From Escherichia coli (GTDB lineage Bacteria > Pseudomonadota > Gammaproteobacteria > Enterobacterales > Enterobacteriaceae), in NCBI RefSeq assembly GCF_003334815.1, contig NZ_QOWO01000074.1: a DNA stretch of 5,190 bases; one strand, 5' to 3'. Of this stretch, positions 1-5,190 are shown in pieces (position 1 is the stretch's first letter; every line of letters starts with the position of its first letter). A model generated the notes under the pieces. That model did not search any database and was not told the origin of the DNA. It saw nothing but the letters and a program-made list of their open reading frames with translations. The translations under genes were made by a program, and so were the position numbers.

Positions 1-1196
1 TCAGGGGCGGTTCCTCGCCCCGCAAACCACACTTTCCCTTTTCCCGACTGGTTCAGTTCATCGAGTGTTTTCATTAACTTTTCACTGTTTTTACGGGGCT
101 GGATTTCATCAAATAATCCCGGCTGCGCTATACCCGATGGTGTGAAATCAGCCAGCATGACTCCTGCCTTCATATAGCGGTACCCTTCACGCCAGACATG
201 GTTTAAGGCTCTGCATGCGGCGGCAATAATGTCCCGGCTGTCCTGTGTGGGCAATGGAAGCTTTTCCACAGCGGCATTGCTGTAACAGGGTTCTTTTACT
301 GCAAAGGGGGATGTCCGTACAAATGTCGTCACCTGCCGGCAATACTGACGCTCCCCACGTAGTTTCTCTGCGGCCCGCTCTGCATACTGAACAACAGCCT
401 GGTGCATGGCATCTTTGTCTGTGATTCGTTCACCAAAACTGCGACTACAGACAATCTGCTGTTTTGCCGGTGGTGCTTCTTCCAGGGATATGCAGGACTC
501 GCCGTTGAGTTCGCGTACCGTACGCTCAAGAATGACGCTGAAGTTTTTCCGGATGAATGCCGTGTTAGCCTGCGCCAGCTGCAGTGCTGTGTTAATACCC
601 AGCGCATTCAGCTTTTCCGTCAGTCTGCGTCCTACTCCCCAGACCTCACCAACTGGCTGCAGCCCCAGTAGCTTCAAGGTCCGATTACGGTTTTCTGCCG
701 TCAGCGCGACCACTCCGGAAAACTGTGGCCATTGCTTTGTTGCCCACTGTGCACTTTTAGCCAGCGTTTTTGTAGGCGCAATGCCCACCCCCATGGTGAG
801 TCCTGTCCAGCTCTTTACCTGTTCCCTGAGCTGATGACCAAAAACCTCCGGAGAGATGCAATGATTTATCCCCCGCAAATCAATGAACATTTCATCAATT
901 GAGTAGGGCTCAACTGCGGGAGAAAGCGACTCCAGAACAGCCATGACCCGTTGGCTCATGCTGTGGTACAGCGCATAATTGCTGGAAAATACATGTATTT
1001 TCTTCTCCAGGCGCATCTGTCTCACCTGAAACCAGGGCTGCCCCATTCTGATGCCAAGGGCTTTTGCCTCCGGGCTGCGCGCGATCACACAGCCATCGTT
1101 ATTGCTGAGTACGATGACCGGTTCGTTGCGAAGGTCCGGGCGGAAAACTTTTTCACATGAGGCGTAGAAACTGTTGATATCAGCCAGTGCAAACAT
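1..1196 (-). CDS. impB: Y-family translesion DNA polymerase subunit, UmuC/MucB/ImpB family (partial; C-terminus beyond the window start)
   Basis: Minus-strand frame is open from ATG at 1196..1194 to the window edge (398 codons, no stop; not in the ORF track because it runs off the edge). By-eye translation begins MFALADINSFYASCEKVFRPDLRNEPVIVLSNNDGCVIARSPEAKALG, matching the conserved UmuC N-terminus, and ends within the window as ...VWFAGRGTAP. Start codon overlaps the upstream gene's stop (ATGA). About 20-25 C-terminal residues are expected beyond position 1 by family length. Confidence 0.9.
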   Translation of the reverse strand, partial: MFALADINSFYASCEKVFRPDLRNEPVIVLSNNDGCVIARSPEAKALGIRMGQPWFQVRQMRLEKKIHVFSSNYALYHSMSQRVMAVLESLSPAVEPYSIDEMFIDLRGINHCISPEVFGHQLREQVKSWTGLTMGVGIAPTKTLAKSAQWATKQWPQFSGVVALTAENRNRTLKLLGLQPVGEVWGVGRRLTEKLNALGINTALQLAQANTAFIRKNFSVILERTVRELNGESCISLEEAPPAKQQIVCSRSFGERITDKDAMHQAVVQYAERAAEKLRGERQYCRQVTTFVRTSPFAVKEPCYSNAAVEKLPLPTQDSRDIIAAACRALNHVWREGYRYMKAGVMLADFTPSGIAQPGLFDEIQPRKNSEKLMKTLDELNQSGKGKVWFAGRGTAP

Positions 1197-1633
1197 CAGC
1201 GTAACTCCCGCGTCCTGTGTATCACGTGAGTGACAACACCAAAAATACAGATGTTTTCCGGATACAGTGTGCGGAATTCCGGGCTGTCTGAAACCGGCTC
1301 CAGTGCCGGGCGTGGGCGCAACAGCAGTCGTTTGACGGTGAACTCACCGTCGATCTCAGCGATAACGATGTCCCCGTGTTGTGGTTTCTCGGCCCTGTCC
1401 ACTACCAGCAGATCACCATTCTGCACGCCAGCTTGGTTCATCGATTCACCGCTGGCGCGCAGAAAGAAGGTGGCTGCAGGTCTGCTGATGCAATAGCTGT
1501 TCAGATCCAGTTCCTGCTCAGCATAATCAGTGGCAGGCGAAGGAAAACCGGCCTGGCAACGATCGGCAAACAACGGTCGCACGTAACTGTCATCGCCTGA
1601 AGGGTCAGCCGGACGGTGATAAACGGTACTCAT
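1196..1633 (-). CDS. impA: UmuD/MucA/ImpA-like SOS mutagenesis protein (LexA-like S24 self-cleaving peptidase), 145 aa
   Basis: ORF-track protein MSTVYHRPADPSGDDSYVRPLFADRCQAGFPSPATDYAEQ... contains the UmuD-family hallmarks: an Ala-Gly cleavage region (CQAGFPSPA), the catalytic Ser motif (ASGESM) and Lys motif (FTVKRL). Length is typical. Stop overlaps the downstream polymerase start; start overlaps the upstream impC stop. Confidence 0.9.
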   Translation of the reverse strand: MSTVYHRPADPSGDDSYVRPLFADRCQAGFPSPATDYAEQELDLNSYCISRPAATFFLRASGESMNQAGVQNGDLLVVDRAEKPQHGDIVIAEIDGEFTVKRLLLRPRPALEPVSDSPEFRTLYPENICIFGVVTHVIHRTRELR

Positions 1634-1878
1634 GCTGCAGGCAGCCAGCTGTCGTCCTGCCAGATTTCTTCCAGCAGAGACAGGATACGTTCTTTATCCT
1701 TGTCGTTGCGGGCTCCTGTGACAGATACAGACGGGGCGCTGCCCTGGTCTATACGCAGCCAGATTTCCGGGTAGTGTGGTTTCAGACGTTGTTCGATTTC
1801 ATTCTGTAGCGCCTGAAGTGTGCCTGATTTGAGGTTTTTTGTGCTCTGGCGGTCGAAAAGAATTTCAATGCGGATCAT
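1630..1878 (-). CDS. impC: DinI-like small SOS regulator (ImpC-like), 82 aa from the internal ATG
   Basis: From ATG at 1878..1876 the product MIRIEILFDRQS...VSVTGARNDKDKERILSLLEEIWQDDSWLPAA aligns to the DinI family (RIE start, VSV core, acidic/Trp C-terminal). A Shine-Dalgarno GGGAGA lies about 7 nt upstream. The ORF track extends to an ATG at 1938 (102 aa), but that would place the LexA box inside the coding region, so I prefer the 1878 start. The three-gene order small DinI-like / UmuD-like / UmuC-like is the basis for the imp symbols. Confidence 0.75.
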   Translation of the reverse strand: MIRIEILFDRQSTKNLKSGTLQALQNEIEQRLKPHYPEIWLRIDQGSAPSVSVTGARNDKDKERILSLLEEIWQDDSWLPAA

Positions 1879-2022: not shown

Positions 2023-2081
2023 CAGCTTATCCACAGCATTTTGCGCACGGTTCTGTGAATAAAATACCTGGTTACCCAGGC

Positions 2082-2093
2082 CGTGCCGGCACG
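2082..2093. promoter_or_regulatory. Perfect 12-bp palindrome CGTGCCGGCACG (candidate operator or structure)
   Basis: Self-complementary 12-mer in the GC-rich leader upstream of the intron-interrupted gene. No known factor assigned. Confidence 0.25.
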
Positions 2094-2189
2094 TTAACCG
2101 GGCTGCATCCGATGCAAGTGTGTCGCTGTCGCCGGCCTCCTCACCCGGTCACGTTTCGTCGTTCCTCCTCCACGCGCTGCGGCTTCGGG

Positions 2190-2233
2190 GCCGCACCTGC
2201 ATTCGTATGCGGTCGCCCGGTTACAGGTGCGGC
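2190..2233 (+). repeat. Inverted repeat / stem-loop, 10-bp perfect stem (GCCGCACCTG ... CAGGTGCGGC) with 24-nt loop
   Basis: 2190..2199 is the exact reverse complement of 2224..2233. A second small hairpin (ggcct/aggcc, 2236..2250) follows. Both sit in the 5' leader about 40-80 nt upstream of the ATG at 2272; no T-run follows, so not a typical intrinsic terminator. Confidence 0.35.
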
Positions 2234-2271
2234 ACGGCCTGATGGAGGCCGCATGTGAGAGGAGAATTCCC

Positions 2272-2292
2272 ATGCCAAACTGGTGCTCGAAT
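2272..2292 (+). CDS. Host gene exon 1 (7 codons, MPNWCSN) of an intron-interrupted hypothetical protein
   Basis: Strong Shine-Dalgarno GAGAGGAG (2257..2264) 7 nt before ATG at 2272. The 7 codons end exactly at the inferred intron 5' junction and join in frame to the long open frame beginning at 4699. Depends on the inferred intron boundaries. Confidence 0.4.
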
Positions 2293-2900
2293 GTGCGACA
2301 TGAAGTCGTCTGAATAATTGTTCCAGCGGAGTTCGATTCCGTCAGGGAACCTGATGTTCCGTCATCAGTAGCCTACTGACACATGCGTCACTGGTAACGG
2401 TGGGGTGTGAAGCTGTCAGGACAATGAAACCGGATCTTCGGATCGCATGAAACCGTGAGGTTACATGTAATCTGCCAGCATCAGGCGGAGGAGGTCTAGG
2501 CTCGGTAGCATGACTAACATATGTGAACTGCTGAAGCGTCGTTAACCAGAACAAGCCAAAGATGCTGACAGGCTTGAACCAAAAGGTATGTGGTTGGTTA
2601 CTCCTCTGTTTGCTAGGGGTACACGGACAATAAACCACCGGTGTTGTGAGCAGAGTCTAACCTACTGTTGTTATTCAGGTGGAACATGGTAAGCCCGTAT
2701 CGCTGCCTCGTGAGGCAGGTTAACCGCAAGGGATACTGTTGGCGGTGCGGGTAAAAGAAGGTGGAAAAAGCGAATGCCAGTCTGTAATGGACCGGATAAG
2801 GGTTGAGCCCGGCAACATTACCCTACGCGAAAGCGGGCAGACTTCCACTGGGTCTTTCATTACGAGAGAGTTTGAGTAATCTTCCAGAAAGGAAAAGCAG

Positions 2901-4625
2901 ATGACTGAGCAGGCTACAACCTGTAAAGGTGCGTCCTTACTTAACGGTGACTCCTGGCACAGTATCAACTGGCGTCAGTGCTATCGGGAAGTGCGGAGAC
3001 TGCAAGCGCGTATCGTAAAGGCAACACGAGAAGGTAAACATGGCAAGGTCAAATCCTTGCAATGGATACTGACTCACTCGTTTAGTGGCAGAGCAGTTGC
3101 TGTCAGACGAGTTACAGAGAATAGCGGGAAACGTACTCCTGGGGTTGATGGTCAGACATGGTCTTCCCCGGAGGTTAAATTTCTTGCTATTAACCTGCTG
3201 AAACGGCGTGGTTACAAACCACAGCCACTTAAGCGGGTTTATATACCTAAGTCAAATGGGAAGTCTCGTCCCCTTGGGATACCCACTATGAAGGATCGGG
3301 CGATGCAGGCGTTGTATTTGCTGGCTCTTGAGCCCGTTGCTGAAGTCACTGCTGACCAGAGATCCTTCGGCTTTCGGACTGGAAGGTCTACTGCAGATGC
3401 GATAGCACAGTGCTTCTGTGTTCTTGCGCAGAAAACATCCGCTGAATGGGTGCTTGAGGGGGATATACGGGGATGCTTTGACAATATATCTCATCAATGG
3501 CTAATCGATAACACCTCAACAGACAGACAAATCCTGACAAAGTGGCTTAAAGCGGGTTACAGGGAAAATGGGCAGTTATTCCCTGTAAATTCAGGAACTC
3601 CTCAGGGGGGAATAATTTCTCCTGTACTGGCTAACATTGCTCTGGATGGACTGGAGGCGCTTCTTGCGTCGGAGTTTAAAAAGAGAACAGTCAAGGGACG
3701 ATTGGTTAACCCGAAAGTTAACTATGTGAGATATGCTGATGATTTTATTATCACTGGAGAGTCAAAAGAACTTCTTGAGTCTCAGGTATTACCCGTCGTC
3801 AGGCGGTTTATGGCTGAAAGAGGATTAATGCTTTCTCCTGAAAAGACGAAAATCACACATATCGAGGAAGGATTTGATTTTCTTGGACAGAACATTCGCA
3901 AATATGGCGGTAAGATGCTGATCAAACCCTCTAAAGCCAATGTCAGTTCCTTTTTAAAGAAAATACGCGCTGTAATCAAAGGCAACAAAGCTATGGATCA
4001 GCTTACGTTGATCCGCATGCTGAACCCAATGATCAAAGGGTGGGCGGCTTACCATCAACACATTGTGGCCAAGGTCGCATTTAACAAAGTTGACAATGAG
4101 ATCTGGCTGGCTTTATGGCGTTGGGCCGTTCGGCGTCATCCCAATAAGGGAAAGAAGTGGATTCGGAAAAGATATTTCCATCAACAAGGTGCCCGAAACT
4201 GGTCTTTCTCCGTGGCTACCGGAGAACTCCTTGCCAACGGTAAGCCTCAGTATGCAAATCTGAGGAAAGCAATCGATACGCCTATCAACCGGTTTAAACC
4301 GATTAAAATCGCAGCTAATCCGTTCGATCCTCAATGGGAGATGTACTTTGAGGAGCGTTGTGCAGACAAAATGCGGCACAAACTGCAAGGACGGAAAAAG
4401 CTCATTCAAATCTGGTTTGAGCAGCGGGGCCGATGCCCCATATGTGATGAGAGGATTACATCTGATTCCCAGTGGCAGGTTCATCACATCATACGGCGAG
4501 TCGATGGAGGGAGCGACTGCCTCTCCAATTTGATTATGCTGCATCCGATGTGTCACACACTTGTTCATGCGAAAGGTATACATGTAGTGAAACCGGCTCA
4601 TGAGAGTGGGCTTAGAAAGGCTTGA
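2901..4625 (+). CDS. Group II intron-encoded protein: reverse transcriptase / maturase / HNH endonuclease, 574 aa
   Basis: ORF-track protein has RT motifs (RVYIPKSNGKSRPLGIPTMKDR, GCFDNISH, SGTPQGGIISPVLANIAL, VRYADDFII), a maturase X region (MIKGWAAYHQH) and a C-terminal HNH/Cys module (CPICDERI...HHIIRRVDGG...CHTLVH). SD AAGGA 7 nt upstream. Stop overlaps the first bases of domain V. Confidence 0.95.
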   Translation: MTEQATTCKGASLLNGDSWHSINWRQCYREVRRLQARIVKATREGKHGKVKSLQWILTHSFSGRAVAVRRVTENSGKRTPGVDGQTWSSPEVKFLAINLLKRRGYKPQPLKRVYIPKSNGKSRPLGIPTMKDRAMQALYLLALEPVAEVTADQRSFGFRTGRSTADAIAQCFCVLAQKTSAEWVLEGDIRGCFDNISHQWLIDNTSTDRQILTKWLKAGYRENGQLFPVNSGTPQGGIISPVLANIALDGLEALLASEFKKRTVKGRLVNPKVNYVRYADDFIITGESKELLESQVLPVVRRFMAERGLMLSPEKTKITHIEEGFDFLGQNIRKYGGKMLIKPSKANVSSFLKKIRAVIKGNKAMDQLTLIRMLNPMIKGWAAYHQHIVAKVAFNKVDNEIWLALWRWAVRRHPNKGKKWIRKRYFHQQGARNWSFSVATGELLANGKPQYANLRKAIDTPINRFKPIKIAANPFDPQWEMYFEERCADKMRHKLQGRKKLIQIWFEQRGRCPICDERITSDSQWQVHHIIRRVDGGSDCLSNLIMLHPMCHTLVHAKGIHVVKPAHESGLRKA

Positions 4626-4698
4626 GCCGTATGCCGGGAAACTGGCACGTACGGTTCTTAGGGGGCGGTGATGCAGTAATGCATCACTGCTACCCGAT
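4624..4698 (+). ncRNA. Group II intron catalytic domain V and domain VI (branch-point helix) up to the 3' splice site
   Basis: DV: GAGCCGUAUGCCGG-GAAA-CUGGCACGUACGGUUC (4624..4657). DVI: 15-bp helix 4661..4675 / 4680..4695 with GUAA loop and a single unpaired A at 4692, six nt before the ...GAU 3' end. Confidence 0.8.
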
Positions 4699-5190
4699 CG
4701 TATGTATTTTTCTGGTGAACCAGCACAGATCGCTGAGATTAAACGACTGGCCAGCGGTGCAGTCACACCGCTTTATCGCCGCGCCACAAATGAAGGTATT
4801 CAGCTGTTTCTGGCCGGAAGTGCCGGACTTCTGCAGATCACTGAAAATATCCGCTCTGAGCAGTGCCCCGGAGTGACGGCTGCCGGACGTGGTGCTGTAT
4901 CACCGGAAAATATCGCGTTCACCCGCTGGCTGACACACCTGCAGAACGGTGTACTGCTGGATGAGCAAAACTGCCTGATGCTGCATGAACTCTGGCTGCA
5001 GAGCGGTACTGGACAGCGTCGCTGGGAAGAGTTACCGGATGATGTCAGGGAAACTATCACTGTGCATTTCACCGCAAAAAGAGGTGACTGGTGTGACATC
5101 TGGGGTAACGAGGATGTATCGGTGTGGTGGAACCGTCTGTGTGACAACGTACTGCCGGAAAAAACCATGCCGTTTGACCTGCTGACGGTT
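4699..5190 (+). CDS. Host gene exon 2: hypothetical protein of unknown function (partial; continues beyond the window end)
   Basis: Frame beginning at 4699 (CGT ATG TAT ...) is open for 164 codons to the window edge: R-MYFSGEPAQIAEIKRLASGAVTPLYRRATNEGIQLFLAGSAGLL...WWNRLCDNVLPEKTMPFDLLTV. Not in the ORF track because it has no stop in the window. Composition is protein-like. I recognise no family from memory. Confidence 0.55.

Follow-up and report, generated by a model that had tools for sequence, protein, structure and literature searches.

The stretch of DNA analysed here (5,190 nucleotides of Escherichia coli, referred to as the window) comes from a conjugative plasmid of IncI/K type, within its leading region, and carries a full-length, probably active group II intron EcI5 between codons 7 and 8 of the plasmid gene yfaB. 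EcI5 is a mobile intron that splices itself and resides on plasmids of E. coli. Splicing would restore a 308-codon open reading frame that thousands of plasmids carry without interruption, and the intron is best understood as a brake on its host gene and not as a switch; this overall reading is given a probability of about 0.88. The earlier note on this DNA had presented the intron without naming it; judged by its sequence, the element at positions 2293-4698 is the already known and well-studied EcI5 on its natural homing site, and an implied novelty is not supported. The following features define the intron and its host gene.

2257..2264, + strand: Shine-Dalgarno sequence GAGAGGAG of yfaB, 7 nt before the ATG at 2272
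2272..2292, + strand: coding part of exon 1, start codon and codons 2-7 (MPNWCSN) of yfaB, assigned from homologue N-termini
2293..4698, + strand: group II intron EcI5 (2406 nt; subgroup IIB1, CL1 RT lineage), assigned from Rfam matches and identity to the pO157 Sakai copy
2901..4625, + strand: intron-encoded protein of 574 aa in domain IV (RT, maturase, DNA-binding and HNH endonuclease regions), assigned with TIGR04416
4624..4657, + strand: domain V catalytic hairpin with AGC triad and GAAA loop, from RF00029 and RF04356 alignments, identical to pO157 EcI5
4660..4696, + strand: domain VI with the bulged branch-point A4692, 7 nt from the 3' splice site, from the RF00029 structure line
4699..5190, + strand: exon 2, yfaB codons 8-171, assigned with Pfam on the full 308-aa protein; the gene continues for 137 codons past the window

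The element shows the conserved ends of group II introns, with GTGCG at 2293 (GTGCGAC is read there) and a closing GAT at 4698. It is identical at 2397 of 2406 nucleotides (99.6 %) to the pO157 Sakai intron, which was identified as EcI5 (PMC8643678), and none of the nine substitutions falls within domain V, domain VI or the EBS sites. Rfam model RF02012 matched positions 2350-2496 (133 bits, E 4e-29; gathering score 34, model positions 1-151), and RF00029, which describes D5/D6, matched 4622-4698 over its full length of 1-77 (66 bits, E 7e-12; gathering score 40) and stopped precisely where the 3' splice site is predicted. The reading frame at 2901-4625 scored 372 bits against the group II RT/maturase model TIGR04416 (cut-off 300). 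Together, these Rfam and TIGR04416 scores far exceed what chance would produce. The intron protein carries a YADD motif at residue 278 and an HNH region at residues 510-562 that matches an IscB nuclease model, and it differs from the pO157 version by only three amino acids (N223K, V438T and D539N). In the RF00029 alignment, A4692 sits in a bulged UA of domain VI, and the domain VI helix of a related intron, L024, shows a compensatory change from U-A to C-G. The helices and loops of domain I were found to be retained in an alignment with six relatives. The homing site has the same flanks in L002.

Comparison with intron-less alleles bore out the boundaries, the length and the in-frame continuation over 164 further codons that the earlier note had predicted. 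Hundreds of intron-less plasmids match the joined exons (1940-2292 and 4699-5190) with 100 % identity across 845 nt, and approximately 4,580 plasmid records align to 2193-2292 and end exactly at 2292. As the intron-less alleles equal the joined exons, the intron boundaries are fixed independently of the intron itself. The shared sense orientation of intron and host gene was likewise confirmed, while the observation that the intron length is a multiple of three has no bearing on the spliced frame.

Recognition of the target by EcI5 would involve the following elements.

2275..2279, + strand: distal 5'-exon recognition bases C-18 (2275), C-17 (2276), A-15 (2278) and A-14/IBS2a (2279), at published EcI5 positions
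2280..2284, + strand: IBS2 CTGGT (-13 to -9), a perfect Watson-Crick partner of EBS2 ACCAG at 2545-2549 that covaries in related introns
2287..2292, + strand: IBS1 TCGAAT (-6 to -1), assigned from pairing with EBS1 GUUUGC
2543..2549, + strand: EBS2a (U2543) and EBS2 (ACCAG, 2545-2549) in domain I, from published numbering and covariation
2608..2613, + strand: EBS1 GUUUGC in the terminal loop of the Id3 hairpin, from covariation
4699 and 4703, + strand: C+1 (IBS3) and T+5 at the start of exon 2

The target base positions C-18, C-17, A-15 and A-14 (PMC8643678, PMC2882425) and the published recognition base T+5 are all present in the window. All five EBS2-IBS2 positions form Watson-Crick pairs, EBS2a-IBS2a is a U-A pair, and the published numbering agrees, with A258, the base that follows EBS2, falling on position 2550. 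The EBS1-IBS1 pairing is weak at the window allele, with three Watson-Crick pairs, two G.U pairs and a mismatch at -6 (five of six positions paired). Neither a search for perfect IBS1 complements in domain I nor MFE folding of 608 nt located EBS1, and its assignment comes from covariation with relatives only. Across the six related introns compared, EBS2 and EBS2a covary with exon positions -13 to -9 and -14 (L009-L014), and the loop homologous to EBS1 pairs with exon positions -6 to -1 in four introns at other sites (GCGCAC/GTGCGC in L012, CCAGTT/AACTGG in L013, CTGACT/AGTCAG in L009 and TCGTAG/TTACGA in L014). The sister intron L024, which is 83 % identical, retains the same EBS1. A second site, CAAAC at -17 to -13, was considered and rejected, even though it matches EBS1 better than the real IBS1 does. 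This better match arises because the motif holds two xCA-AAC codon pairs, namely Pro2-Asn3 and, in other alleles, Ala6-Asn7.

The position of the intron relative to the host gene depends on where translation of yfaB starts. RefSeq/PGAP often places it at the counterpart of the ATG at 4702 (300 aa, MYFSG), and does so in intron-less alleles too. With this start the intron would fall in the 5' untranslated region, so that its location in the coding sequence required proof. Under this alternative, the intron would end three nucleotides before the start codon and unspliced RNA would suffice for production of the protein. The 300-aa product is annotated in intron-containing as well as intron-less plasmids, and three database homologues begin at the equivalent of Met9. 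However, the stretch just before the ATG at 4702, gcatcactgctacccgatcgt, contains no Shine-Dalgarno sequence, as the earlier note had said, and in the unspliced RNA this ATG lies 4 nt past the domain VI helix. Among 65 full-length homologues, 61 begin with MP[ND]WC[ASC]NR, and in 43 of these position 9 is Leu, Val or Ala; the L024 host allele has no Met near this position at all. Seven of the first eight residues (M1, P2, N3, W4, C5, N7 and R8) are invariant in an alignment of 24 sequences, and the MPNWCxNR motif is kept in homologues of 38-60 % identity. In the distant alleles L015, L017 and L019, codons 1-8 differ by synonymous changes only and the Shine-Dalgarno sequence is conserved; homologues from Salmonella, Klebsiella and Pantoea carry AGGAG equally far from the start codon. 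Structural and profile comparisons point the same way: residue 3 aligns to residue 3 of PDB 2IJR (the Api92 crystal-structure sequence), the YfaB structure model shows strand beta-1 at residues 4-12, a PHROG profile spans residues 1-308, and PGAP itself annotates the 308-aa form in the pESBL record. A start at 4702 is thus hardly credible, and the comparative evidence places the true start of yfaB at the ATG at 2272.

With this start and an intron after codon 7, the full-length protein needs splicing, as the earlier note had proposed. Its description of the reading frame also holds. The Shine-Dalgarno sequence and the ATG at 2272 open a frame that encodes MPNWCSN up to GTGCG and, without splicing, continues as MPNWCSNVRHEVV to a TGA at 2311-2313, so that by its sequence unspliced RNA could yield only a 13-residue peptide. 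The spliced frame (MPNWCSN followed by RMYFSG) stays open to the end of the window. RefSeq holds two starts for one gene (300 aa and 308 aa), and the short form masks that EcI5 interrupts a coding sequence.

The host gene, named yfaB in R64, is a conserved plasmid gene of the DUF1281/Api92-like family. Its full 308-aa product matches PF06924 (E 1.6e-46) and PF18406, a ferredoxin-like C-terminal domain (E 2.9e-15), and resembles PDB 2IJR in sequence (E 3e-47) and fold (TM 0.81-0.88). A fold search of the PDB with YfaB returned Api92 alone, and a search of NCBIfam matched neither the host protein nor the neighbours of L024.

The earlier note had regarded an insertion this close to a start codon as unusual for homing. 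This view was not upheld, as no stretch of yfaB is more strongly conserved than the target: the longest run of invariant residues in the protein is specified by the 21 nt of exon 1 together with the opening codons of exon 2. The DNA target from -18 to +5 coincides with the beginning of the coding sequence. The invariant residues P2, N3, W4, C5, N7 and R8 fix the critical bases of this target, and C-18, C-17, A-15 and A-14 occupy positions 1 and 2 of the invariant Pro2 and Asn3 codons. As these critical bases fall on non-degenerate positions of invariant codons, selection on the protein is expected to preserve the homing site across plasmid families, which would allow one intron lineage to occupy one junction in very different alleles. 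L024 lies at the same junction of codons 7 and 8 (intron 82.9 % identical in nucleotides, intron protein 84 % in amino acids) in a homologue whose protein shares only 38 % identity, and L023 occupies this junction as well. The system offers a clean example of a homing site held stable by protein-level selection, with a sister intron on the same junction of a distant homologue. A metagenome scan found two occupied DUF1281 sites, and none was found in two scans of one genome per species. Relatives with 74 % identity in Serratia and Klebsiella plasmids were set aside, as they lie at unrelated sites.

Occupancy of the site is low. PLSDB holds 3,637 records in which the 45-nt site is uninterrupted and 180 in which it is occupied; the latter number, based on junction-spanning records, compares with 184 records that contain a copy at least 99 % identical. 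Complete E. coli genomes that bear the site are occupied in 143 of 2,987 cases. Approximately 5 % of the available sites are therefore filled.

The 394-nt gap upstream of yfaB contains one further feature.

2077..2241, - strand: large imperfect hairpin with arms at 2077-2103 and 2215-2241, a candidate ssDNA promoter of the yfaB-methylase operon

The inverted repeat spans 27 nt with 81 % complementarity, and DNA folding gave z scores of -2.3 for the - strand and -3.3 for the + strand. The hairpin lies directly upstream of yfaB as a single copy and is 100 % identical in pESBL, 97.5 % in F and 98.3 % in pO157; in pESBL no other large intergenic hairpin precedes the yfaB-yfbA-methylase operon. A Pantoea plasmid has homologous arms with three compensatory pairs, where arms of distant hairpins were compared by eye on single-sequence folds, as alignment with MAFFT and RNAalifold was poor. 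No similarity to other Frpo/ssi hairpins (ssi1-3) was detected. A dsDNA scan found no sigma-70-like promoter on the + strand at 1850-2300, and inspection of the hairpin arms by eye gave weak -35/-10 candidates only (TTAACG-17-TAACCA), without convincing hexamers. The orientation of hairpin and operon is that of ssb, psiB and ardA, and they lie about 17 kb from the nikA/oriT side. A large stem-loop on the transferred (-) strand, upstream of an operon in early-gene orientation, is the arrangement of a leading-region ssDNA promoter. The gene yfaB stands first in a leading-region operon, and the conserved hairpin before it is probably a single-strand promoter. One study describes, for intron-less plasmids, an operon with an anti-restriction methylase that is induced immediately after conjugative entry, and, for pESBL operons, transcription starts mapped in transconjugants and activity only while the DNA is single-stranded (PMC12672017). 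By its position, the hairpin would correspond to the class 3 ssDNA promoter of that study. The 77-nt gap immediately ahead of the methylase gene was considered as the class 3 site and rejected: it folds no better than shuffled sequences (z -0.4) and is an unlikely place for a large class 3 hairpin. The downstream genes of the operon have their own ribosome-binding sites.

Published work on the cloned pO157 intron indicates how the window copy may behave. Splicing and lariat formation were demonstrated by primer extension and Northern blot (PMC8643678, PMC6003770), and EcI5 splices in E. coli when its RT is present, with retrohoming of about 88 % in overexpression plasmid assays (PMC8643678). 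In a fusion of the homing site to GFP with EcI5 overexpressed, only 17 % splicing was measured, and mRNA and GFP were strongly lowered, although some GFP was still made (PMC6003770). As established for EcI5 elsewhere, the 574-aa protein would be translated from the precursor, bind domain IV and assist splicing, which would proceed through EBS1/IBS1, EBS2/IBS2, domain V and branch point A4692; the lariat-protein particle would then reverse-splice into empty yfaB sites. Spliced product would be made but far less of it, as expected of a brake rather than an evolved switch. With less certainty, the hairpin would serve as a single-strand promoter shortly after the plasmid has entered by conjugation and account for most of the transcription. 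New recipients would in that case see a burst of YfaB, of intron RNA and of the protein that the intron encodes.

Two other readings concern the consequence for the host gene. Since splicing reaches only 17 % even with overexpression, the practical outcome may be near a knock-out, and the insertion might simply have inactivated a dispensable gene, with natural splicing too poor to give useful YfaB. The weak EBS1-IBS1 pairing at the window allele would fit such a loss, yfaB is frameshifted in the F plasmid, which means that the protein is dispensable at least there, and truncated EcI5 remnants leave the gene disrupted in several plasmids. Nevertheless, the window intron is intact and nearly identical to an experimentally active copy, the published fusion still yielded GFP through splicing, and yfaB is otherwise conserved under strong purifying selection across genera. 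An effective knock-out is accordingly considered improbable. The earlier note had further concluded that expression is gated by splicing. That the full-length protein needs splicing stands, but an evolved regulatory gate does not follow, as the published tests show mainly lowered expression. A gate or timer, in which temperature- or intron-protein-dependent splicing times YfaB and perhaps the methylase to the benefit of the plasmid, would suit a gene that heads an operon probably induced on entry and a junction that is occupied in diverged alleles, and a precedent exists in Ll.LtrB of the pRS01 relaxase gene, a proposed cold sensor (PMC7293003). Yet the sites are mostly empty despite efficient retrohoming in the overexpression assay, which fits a cost or poor natural expression and not a benefit; nothing in the sequence goes beyond an ordinary selfish insertion, and the downstream genes have ribosome-binding sites of their own. 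A gate is therefore even less probable than a knock-out, and what looks like gating is a cost that any intron inside an open reading frame brings with it.

Within the preferred reading of EcI5 as a brake, a tentative extension, more doubtful than not, is that the lineage of EcI5 specialises in the opening seven codons of genes that stand first in leading-region operons driven by single-strand promoters, with expression in an entry burst and occupancy limited by cost. Each plasmid entry would then produce a burst of intron RNA and RT, a 'zygotic induction' of a retroelement that would coincide with the first meeting of resident plasmids bearing empty yfaB sites. The 2.4-kb insertion would delay or lower YfaB and possibly the downstream anti-restriction methylase operon, and this expression cost would keep occupancy near 5 % despite very efficient laboratory retrohoming. 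A retroelement at the head of an entry-induced operon would provide a testable link among intron expression, intron spread and plasmid establishment. As element and site are known, these points on annotation, intron biology and plasmid biology leave the overall verdict unchanged.

The closest known system is EcI5 in pO157 of E. coli O157:H7, which is the same element at the same insertion point in the same gene behind the same upstream hairpin; the window copy agrees with what is published for it on target bases, on EBS2/EBS2a numbering and on RT lineage. The two differ in their carrier, as pO157 is a non-mobilizable IncF plasmid whereas the window copy resides on a conjugative IncI/K-type plasmid. 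EcI5 has been used as a targetron, and the cited EcI5 papers treat the location as a 'target site' and describe neither the host gene nor its true start. Positionally, the hairpin matches ssp3 (class 3) upstream of the M.EcoGIX operon in pESBL and F (Wen et al. 2025, PMC12672017), which suggests that they are the same structure. The group II intron in yffB beside ssi3/ssb of p1ESBL also lies in an IncI leading region and moved between co-resident plasmids during a 15-day experiment (PMC10104558), but it occupies another gene in opposite orientation to ssb and encodes a different intron protein. This jump was considered as live EcI5 homing and rejected, as the supplement shows the different intron in yffB. 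The closest characterised ribozyme and RT relatives are the IIB1 introns TeI4h / Th.e.I3 of Thermosynechococcus, which follow the same EBS2a-IBS2a logic; they share about 50 % identity with EcI5 and are thermophilic, with relaxed protein recognition and many genomic sites instead of one. Ll.LtrB in the ltrB relaxase gene of Lactococcus pRS01 is likewise an intron with RT, maturase and endonuclease functions that interrupts a protein gene of a conjugative plasmid, and there too the host protein needs splicing and host expression is lowered (PMC6003770). Ll.LtrB, however, is a IIA intron located centrally in a gene that transfer requires, whereas EcI5 is a IIB1 intron at codon 7 of an apparently non-essential leading-region gene.

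The element that interrupts the host gene yfaB (DUF1281/Api92-like; exon 1 from the ATG at 2272 to 2292, exon 2 from 4699) is a group II intron already known as EcI5, and its position here is the natural site known for it. The following parts were located:

2350-2496, group II intron domains I-IV (Rfam RF02012, 133 bits)
2543, a U serving as EBS2a, pairing with A-14 (negative numbers denote exon 1 positions)
2545-2549, exon-binding site EBS2, ACCAG, in perfect pairing with CTGGT at -13 to -9
2901-4625, group II reverse transcriptase/maturase ORF of 574 codons (TIGR04416, 372 bits)
4622-4698, domains V-VI (Rfam RF00029, 66 bits)

The RF00029 match ends exactly at the 3' splice site predicted in the earlier note, and every coordinate given there proved correct when checked against the sequence. 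The ORF carries a YADD motif and an HNH nuclease region. Over its 2406 nt (2293-4698) the intron is 100% identical to a copy on an ECOR 3 plasmid and 99.6% identical to that on pO157 of E. coli O157:H7 Sakai. Of the nine differences from the pO157 copy, eight fall in the ORF and change three amino acids, and the ninth is close to the 5' end of domain I; domain V, domain VI and the exon-binding sites contain none. The pO157 intron was named EcI5; its ribozyme belongs to subgroup IIB1 and its reverse transcriptase to the CL1 lineage, its retrohoming reached about 88% in plasmid assays and it is in use as a gene-targeting vector (PMC8643678).

The earlier note had called for a database search with the joined exons. 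Exons 1940-2292 and 4699-5190 (845 nt) were joined and searched in PLSDB; many plasmids without the intron, from E. coli, Shigella and Salmonella, matched them at 100% identity with no break at the junction. With a 200-nt query over the 5' junction, 180 PLSDB records spanned the junction and about 4,580 ended exactly at 2292. EcI5 copies at no less than 99% identity are present in 184 records, so nearly all copies reside at this one site. The 45-nt joined target (-30 to +15) was unbroken in 3,637 PLSDB records (2,925 of them at 99% identity or more). Among complete E. coli genomes, the 200-nt query detected the site in 2,987 of 5,426, with 143 sites occupied; occupancy of available sites is only about 5%.

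In RefSeq/PGAP the host gene begins at the ATG corresponding to 4702 (300 aa, MYFSG...), both in intron-bearing plasmids and in one intron-less plasmid. If this start were right, the intron would precede the gene by 3 nt and gate nothing. The 300-aa product WP_001739825.1 is assigned in both kinds of plasmid, whereas PGAP's own call in pESBL is the 308-aa form WP_001134370.1 (MPNWC...). One gene is thus annotated with two starts, at 4702 in the window, 4357 in locus L001 and 6410 in L003 versus 8471 in L008. Several observations contradict the downstream start. The motif MP[ND]WC[ASC]NR stands at residue 1 in 61 of the 65 full-length homologues retrieved, and in 43 of these 61 position 9 is Leu, Val or Ala, so that a second Met is absent. 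In an alignment of 24 sequences with identities down to 44%, M1, P2, N3, W4, C5, N7 and R8 are invariant and the M1-R8 stretch is the longest invariant run of the protein. Residue 3 of the Api92 crystal-structure sequence (2IJR) aligns with residue 3, and the first beta-strand comprises residues 4-12 in the AlphaFold model (pLDDT 87). At the DNA level, all differences from the window in codons 1-8 of the Salmonella, Klebsiella and Pantoea homologues are synonymous, and AGGAG is found 7 nt before the ATG in each; ATG 4702 has no SD and is located 4 nt 3' of the domain VI helix in unspliced RNA. The 300-aa model is short by 8 conserved residues and conceals the interruption of the coding sequence by EcI5. 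The homologue N-termini, the invariant M1-R8 stretch, the purely synonymous changes and the SD thus bear out the proposal that the intron lies within the coding sequence and that the full-length protein depends on splicing. This structural reading is right and corrects a widespread annotation.

The accompanying idea that splicing gates expression holds in the trivial sense that the full-length protein needs splicing, but no evidence was obtained for gating as a regulatory device. When GFP was fused to EcI5 in its homing site in E. coli, splicing amounted to 17%, and mRNA and GFP were sharply reduced in comparison with a ligated-exon construct (Qu et al., PMC6003770). In the F plasmid (NC_002483, about 12856-13790), yfaB is frameshifted near codon 163 and missing from the gene table, so the protein is not essential there. 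Structural and family matches of YfaB were limited to Api92 and an uncharacterised PHROG.

The insertion had also been regarded as unusually placed, which is mistaken, as the homing site is the DNA encoding the invariant motif. EBS2 was placed by the published numbering, in which the following base is A258. EBS1 was not revealed by complement searches or MFE folding, and domain I was therefore aligned with six IIB1 relatives (about 70% identical) at other insertion sites. The loop homologous to 2608-2613 complements each relative's own exon -6 to -1 (e.g. GCGCAC/GTGCGC, CCAGTT/AACTGG, CTGACT/AGTCAG and TCGTAG/TTACGA), and EBS2 covaries likewise. EBS1 GUUUGC (2608-2613) faces TCGAAT in the window; three of the six positions form Watson-Crick pairs, two are G.U wobbles and -6 is mismatched. 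All the bases published as recognised by the intron protein (C-18, C-17, A-15, A-14 and T+5) are present and coincide with positions 1-2 of the Pro2/Asn3 codons and with the Arg8-Met9 codons, while IBS2 covers the Trp4 codon. In the Pantoea plasmid allele (L019, 1501-1524), codons 6-7 (GCA AAC) can form Watson-Crick pairs with EBS1 at all six of six positions. From the few alleles examined, the cognate site of EcI5 may be an Ala6 allele, and the E. coli Ser6 allele (TCG AAT) may be a near-cognate site, which is only a lead from two alleles. CAAAC at -17 to -13 (2276-2280) is fully complementary to GUUUG of EBS1 and takes in C-17, A-15 and A-14, which are published as critical to the intron protein; this match is probably due to two xCA-AAC codon pairs in the motif.

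A metagenome scan for P-N-W-C-A-N directly before GTGCGAC matched two contigs. The first (L024, RCUM01000098.1, 783-3186) carries a full-length intron with 82.9% nucleotide identity to EcI5, an intact protein (571 aa, 84% identical), unchanged EBS1 and EBS2 and a compensatory U-A to C-G change in domain VI. It is inserted between codons 7 and 8 of a DUF1281 gene whose product has just 38% identity to the window's homologue. This L024 allele keeps C-18, C-17, A-15, A-14, IBS2, C+1 and T+5 and has no Met until about residue 133; the neighbouring genes gave no NCBIfam matches. The two introns resemble each other far more closely than their host genes do, a pattern that favours homing from one allele to another over strict co-descent. 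The second contig (L023) is a piece of an F-type plasmid; its allele has Ala6, and of EcI5 it holds only the first 153 nt (10724-10876); an adjoining small ORF resembles the C-terminus of an IS66-family transposase (candidate). Fragments of the EcI5 5' end (first 153, 308, 447, 577 or 909 nt) occur in E. coli/Shigella plasmids; they appear to be products of decay whose presence keeps yfaB disrupted for good.

The window belongs to the leading region of a conjugative plasmid of IncI/K type. Upstream of the host gene it contains:

truncated by the window start, minus strand, Y-family polymerase gene
1196-1633, minus strand, umuD-like gene
1630-1878, minus strand, DinI-like gene
2077-2103 and 2215-2241, arms of a long imperfect hairpin in the gap before the host gene

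A perfect LexA box CTGTATGCATATACAG (1902-1917) adjoins a sigma-70-like promoter (TTGACT-18-TAGAAT; 1948-1919, minus strand) directed at the three minus-strand genes, which would make up an imp/umu-type operon under SOS control, running divergently from the host gene. The gap between the DinI-like gene and the host gene measures 394 nt, and a scan of it found no sigma-70-like promoter toward the host gene in double-stranded DNA. The hairpin is more stable than its shuffled versions (z -2.3 and -3.3). Each plasmid has one copy of it, and it shows no relationship to the Frpo/ssi hairpins located by ssb and psiB. Directly upstream of yfaB it is 100% identical in pESBL, 98.3% in pO157 and 97.5% in F, which keeps it despite the frameshifted gene. 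The Pantoea gene is preceded by a homologous hairpin with three compensatory pairs, and the L024 gene by a different, strongly folding sequence (z -5.0). A small GC-rich stem-loop with a T-run after it (GCCTGGGTAACCAGGT ATTTTATT; 2066-2081, minus strand) lies at the base of the large hairpin and resembles a terminator.

In pESBL, yfaB heads the operon yfaB-yfbA-M.EcoGIX methylase. Wen et al. (PMC12672017) showed that expression of the M.EcoGIX operon rises up to hundreds-fold in the first 15 min after conjugative entry, and ascribed the rise to a 'class 3' single-strand promoter whose hairpin differs from the others. As the window hairpin lies upstream of the operon head and the 77-nt gap immediately before the methylase does not fold, we infer that the hairpin would be this class 3 promoter; convincing -35/-10 boxes were not found in it. 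If so, a burst of intron RNA and protein would be expected in each new recipient, with a 2.4-kb insertion separating the promoter from the anti-restriction operon.

Over 1,800 plasmid records, most of them from Klebsiella and E. coli, contain IIB1 introns about 70% identical to EcI5 (loci including L011, L012 and L014), and one such relative adjoins a hok toxin gene. An unrelated group II intron disrupts yffB beside ssi3/ssb (PMC10104558 supplement), and group II introns may recurrently colonise the leading regions of plasmids.
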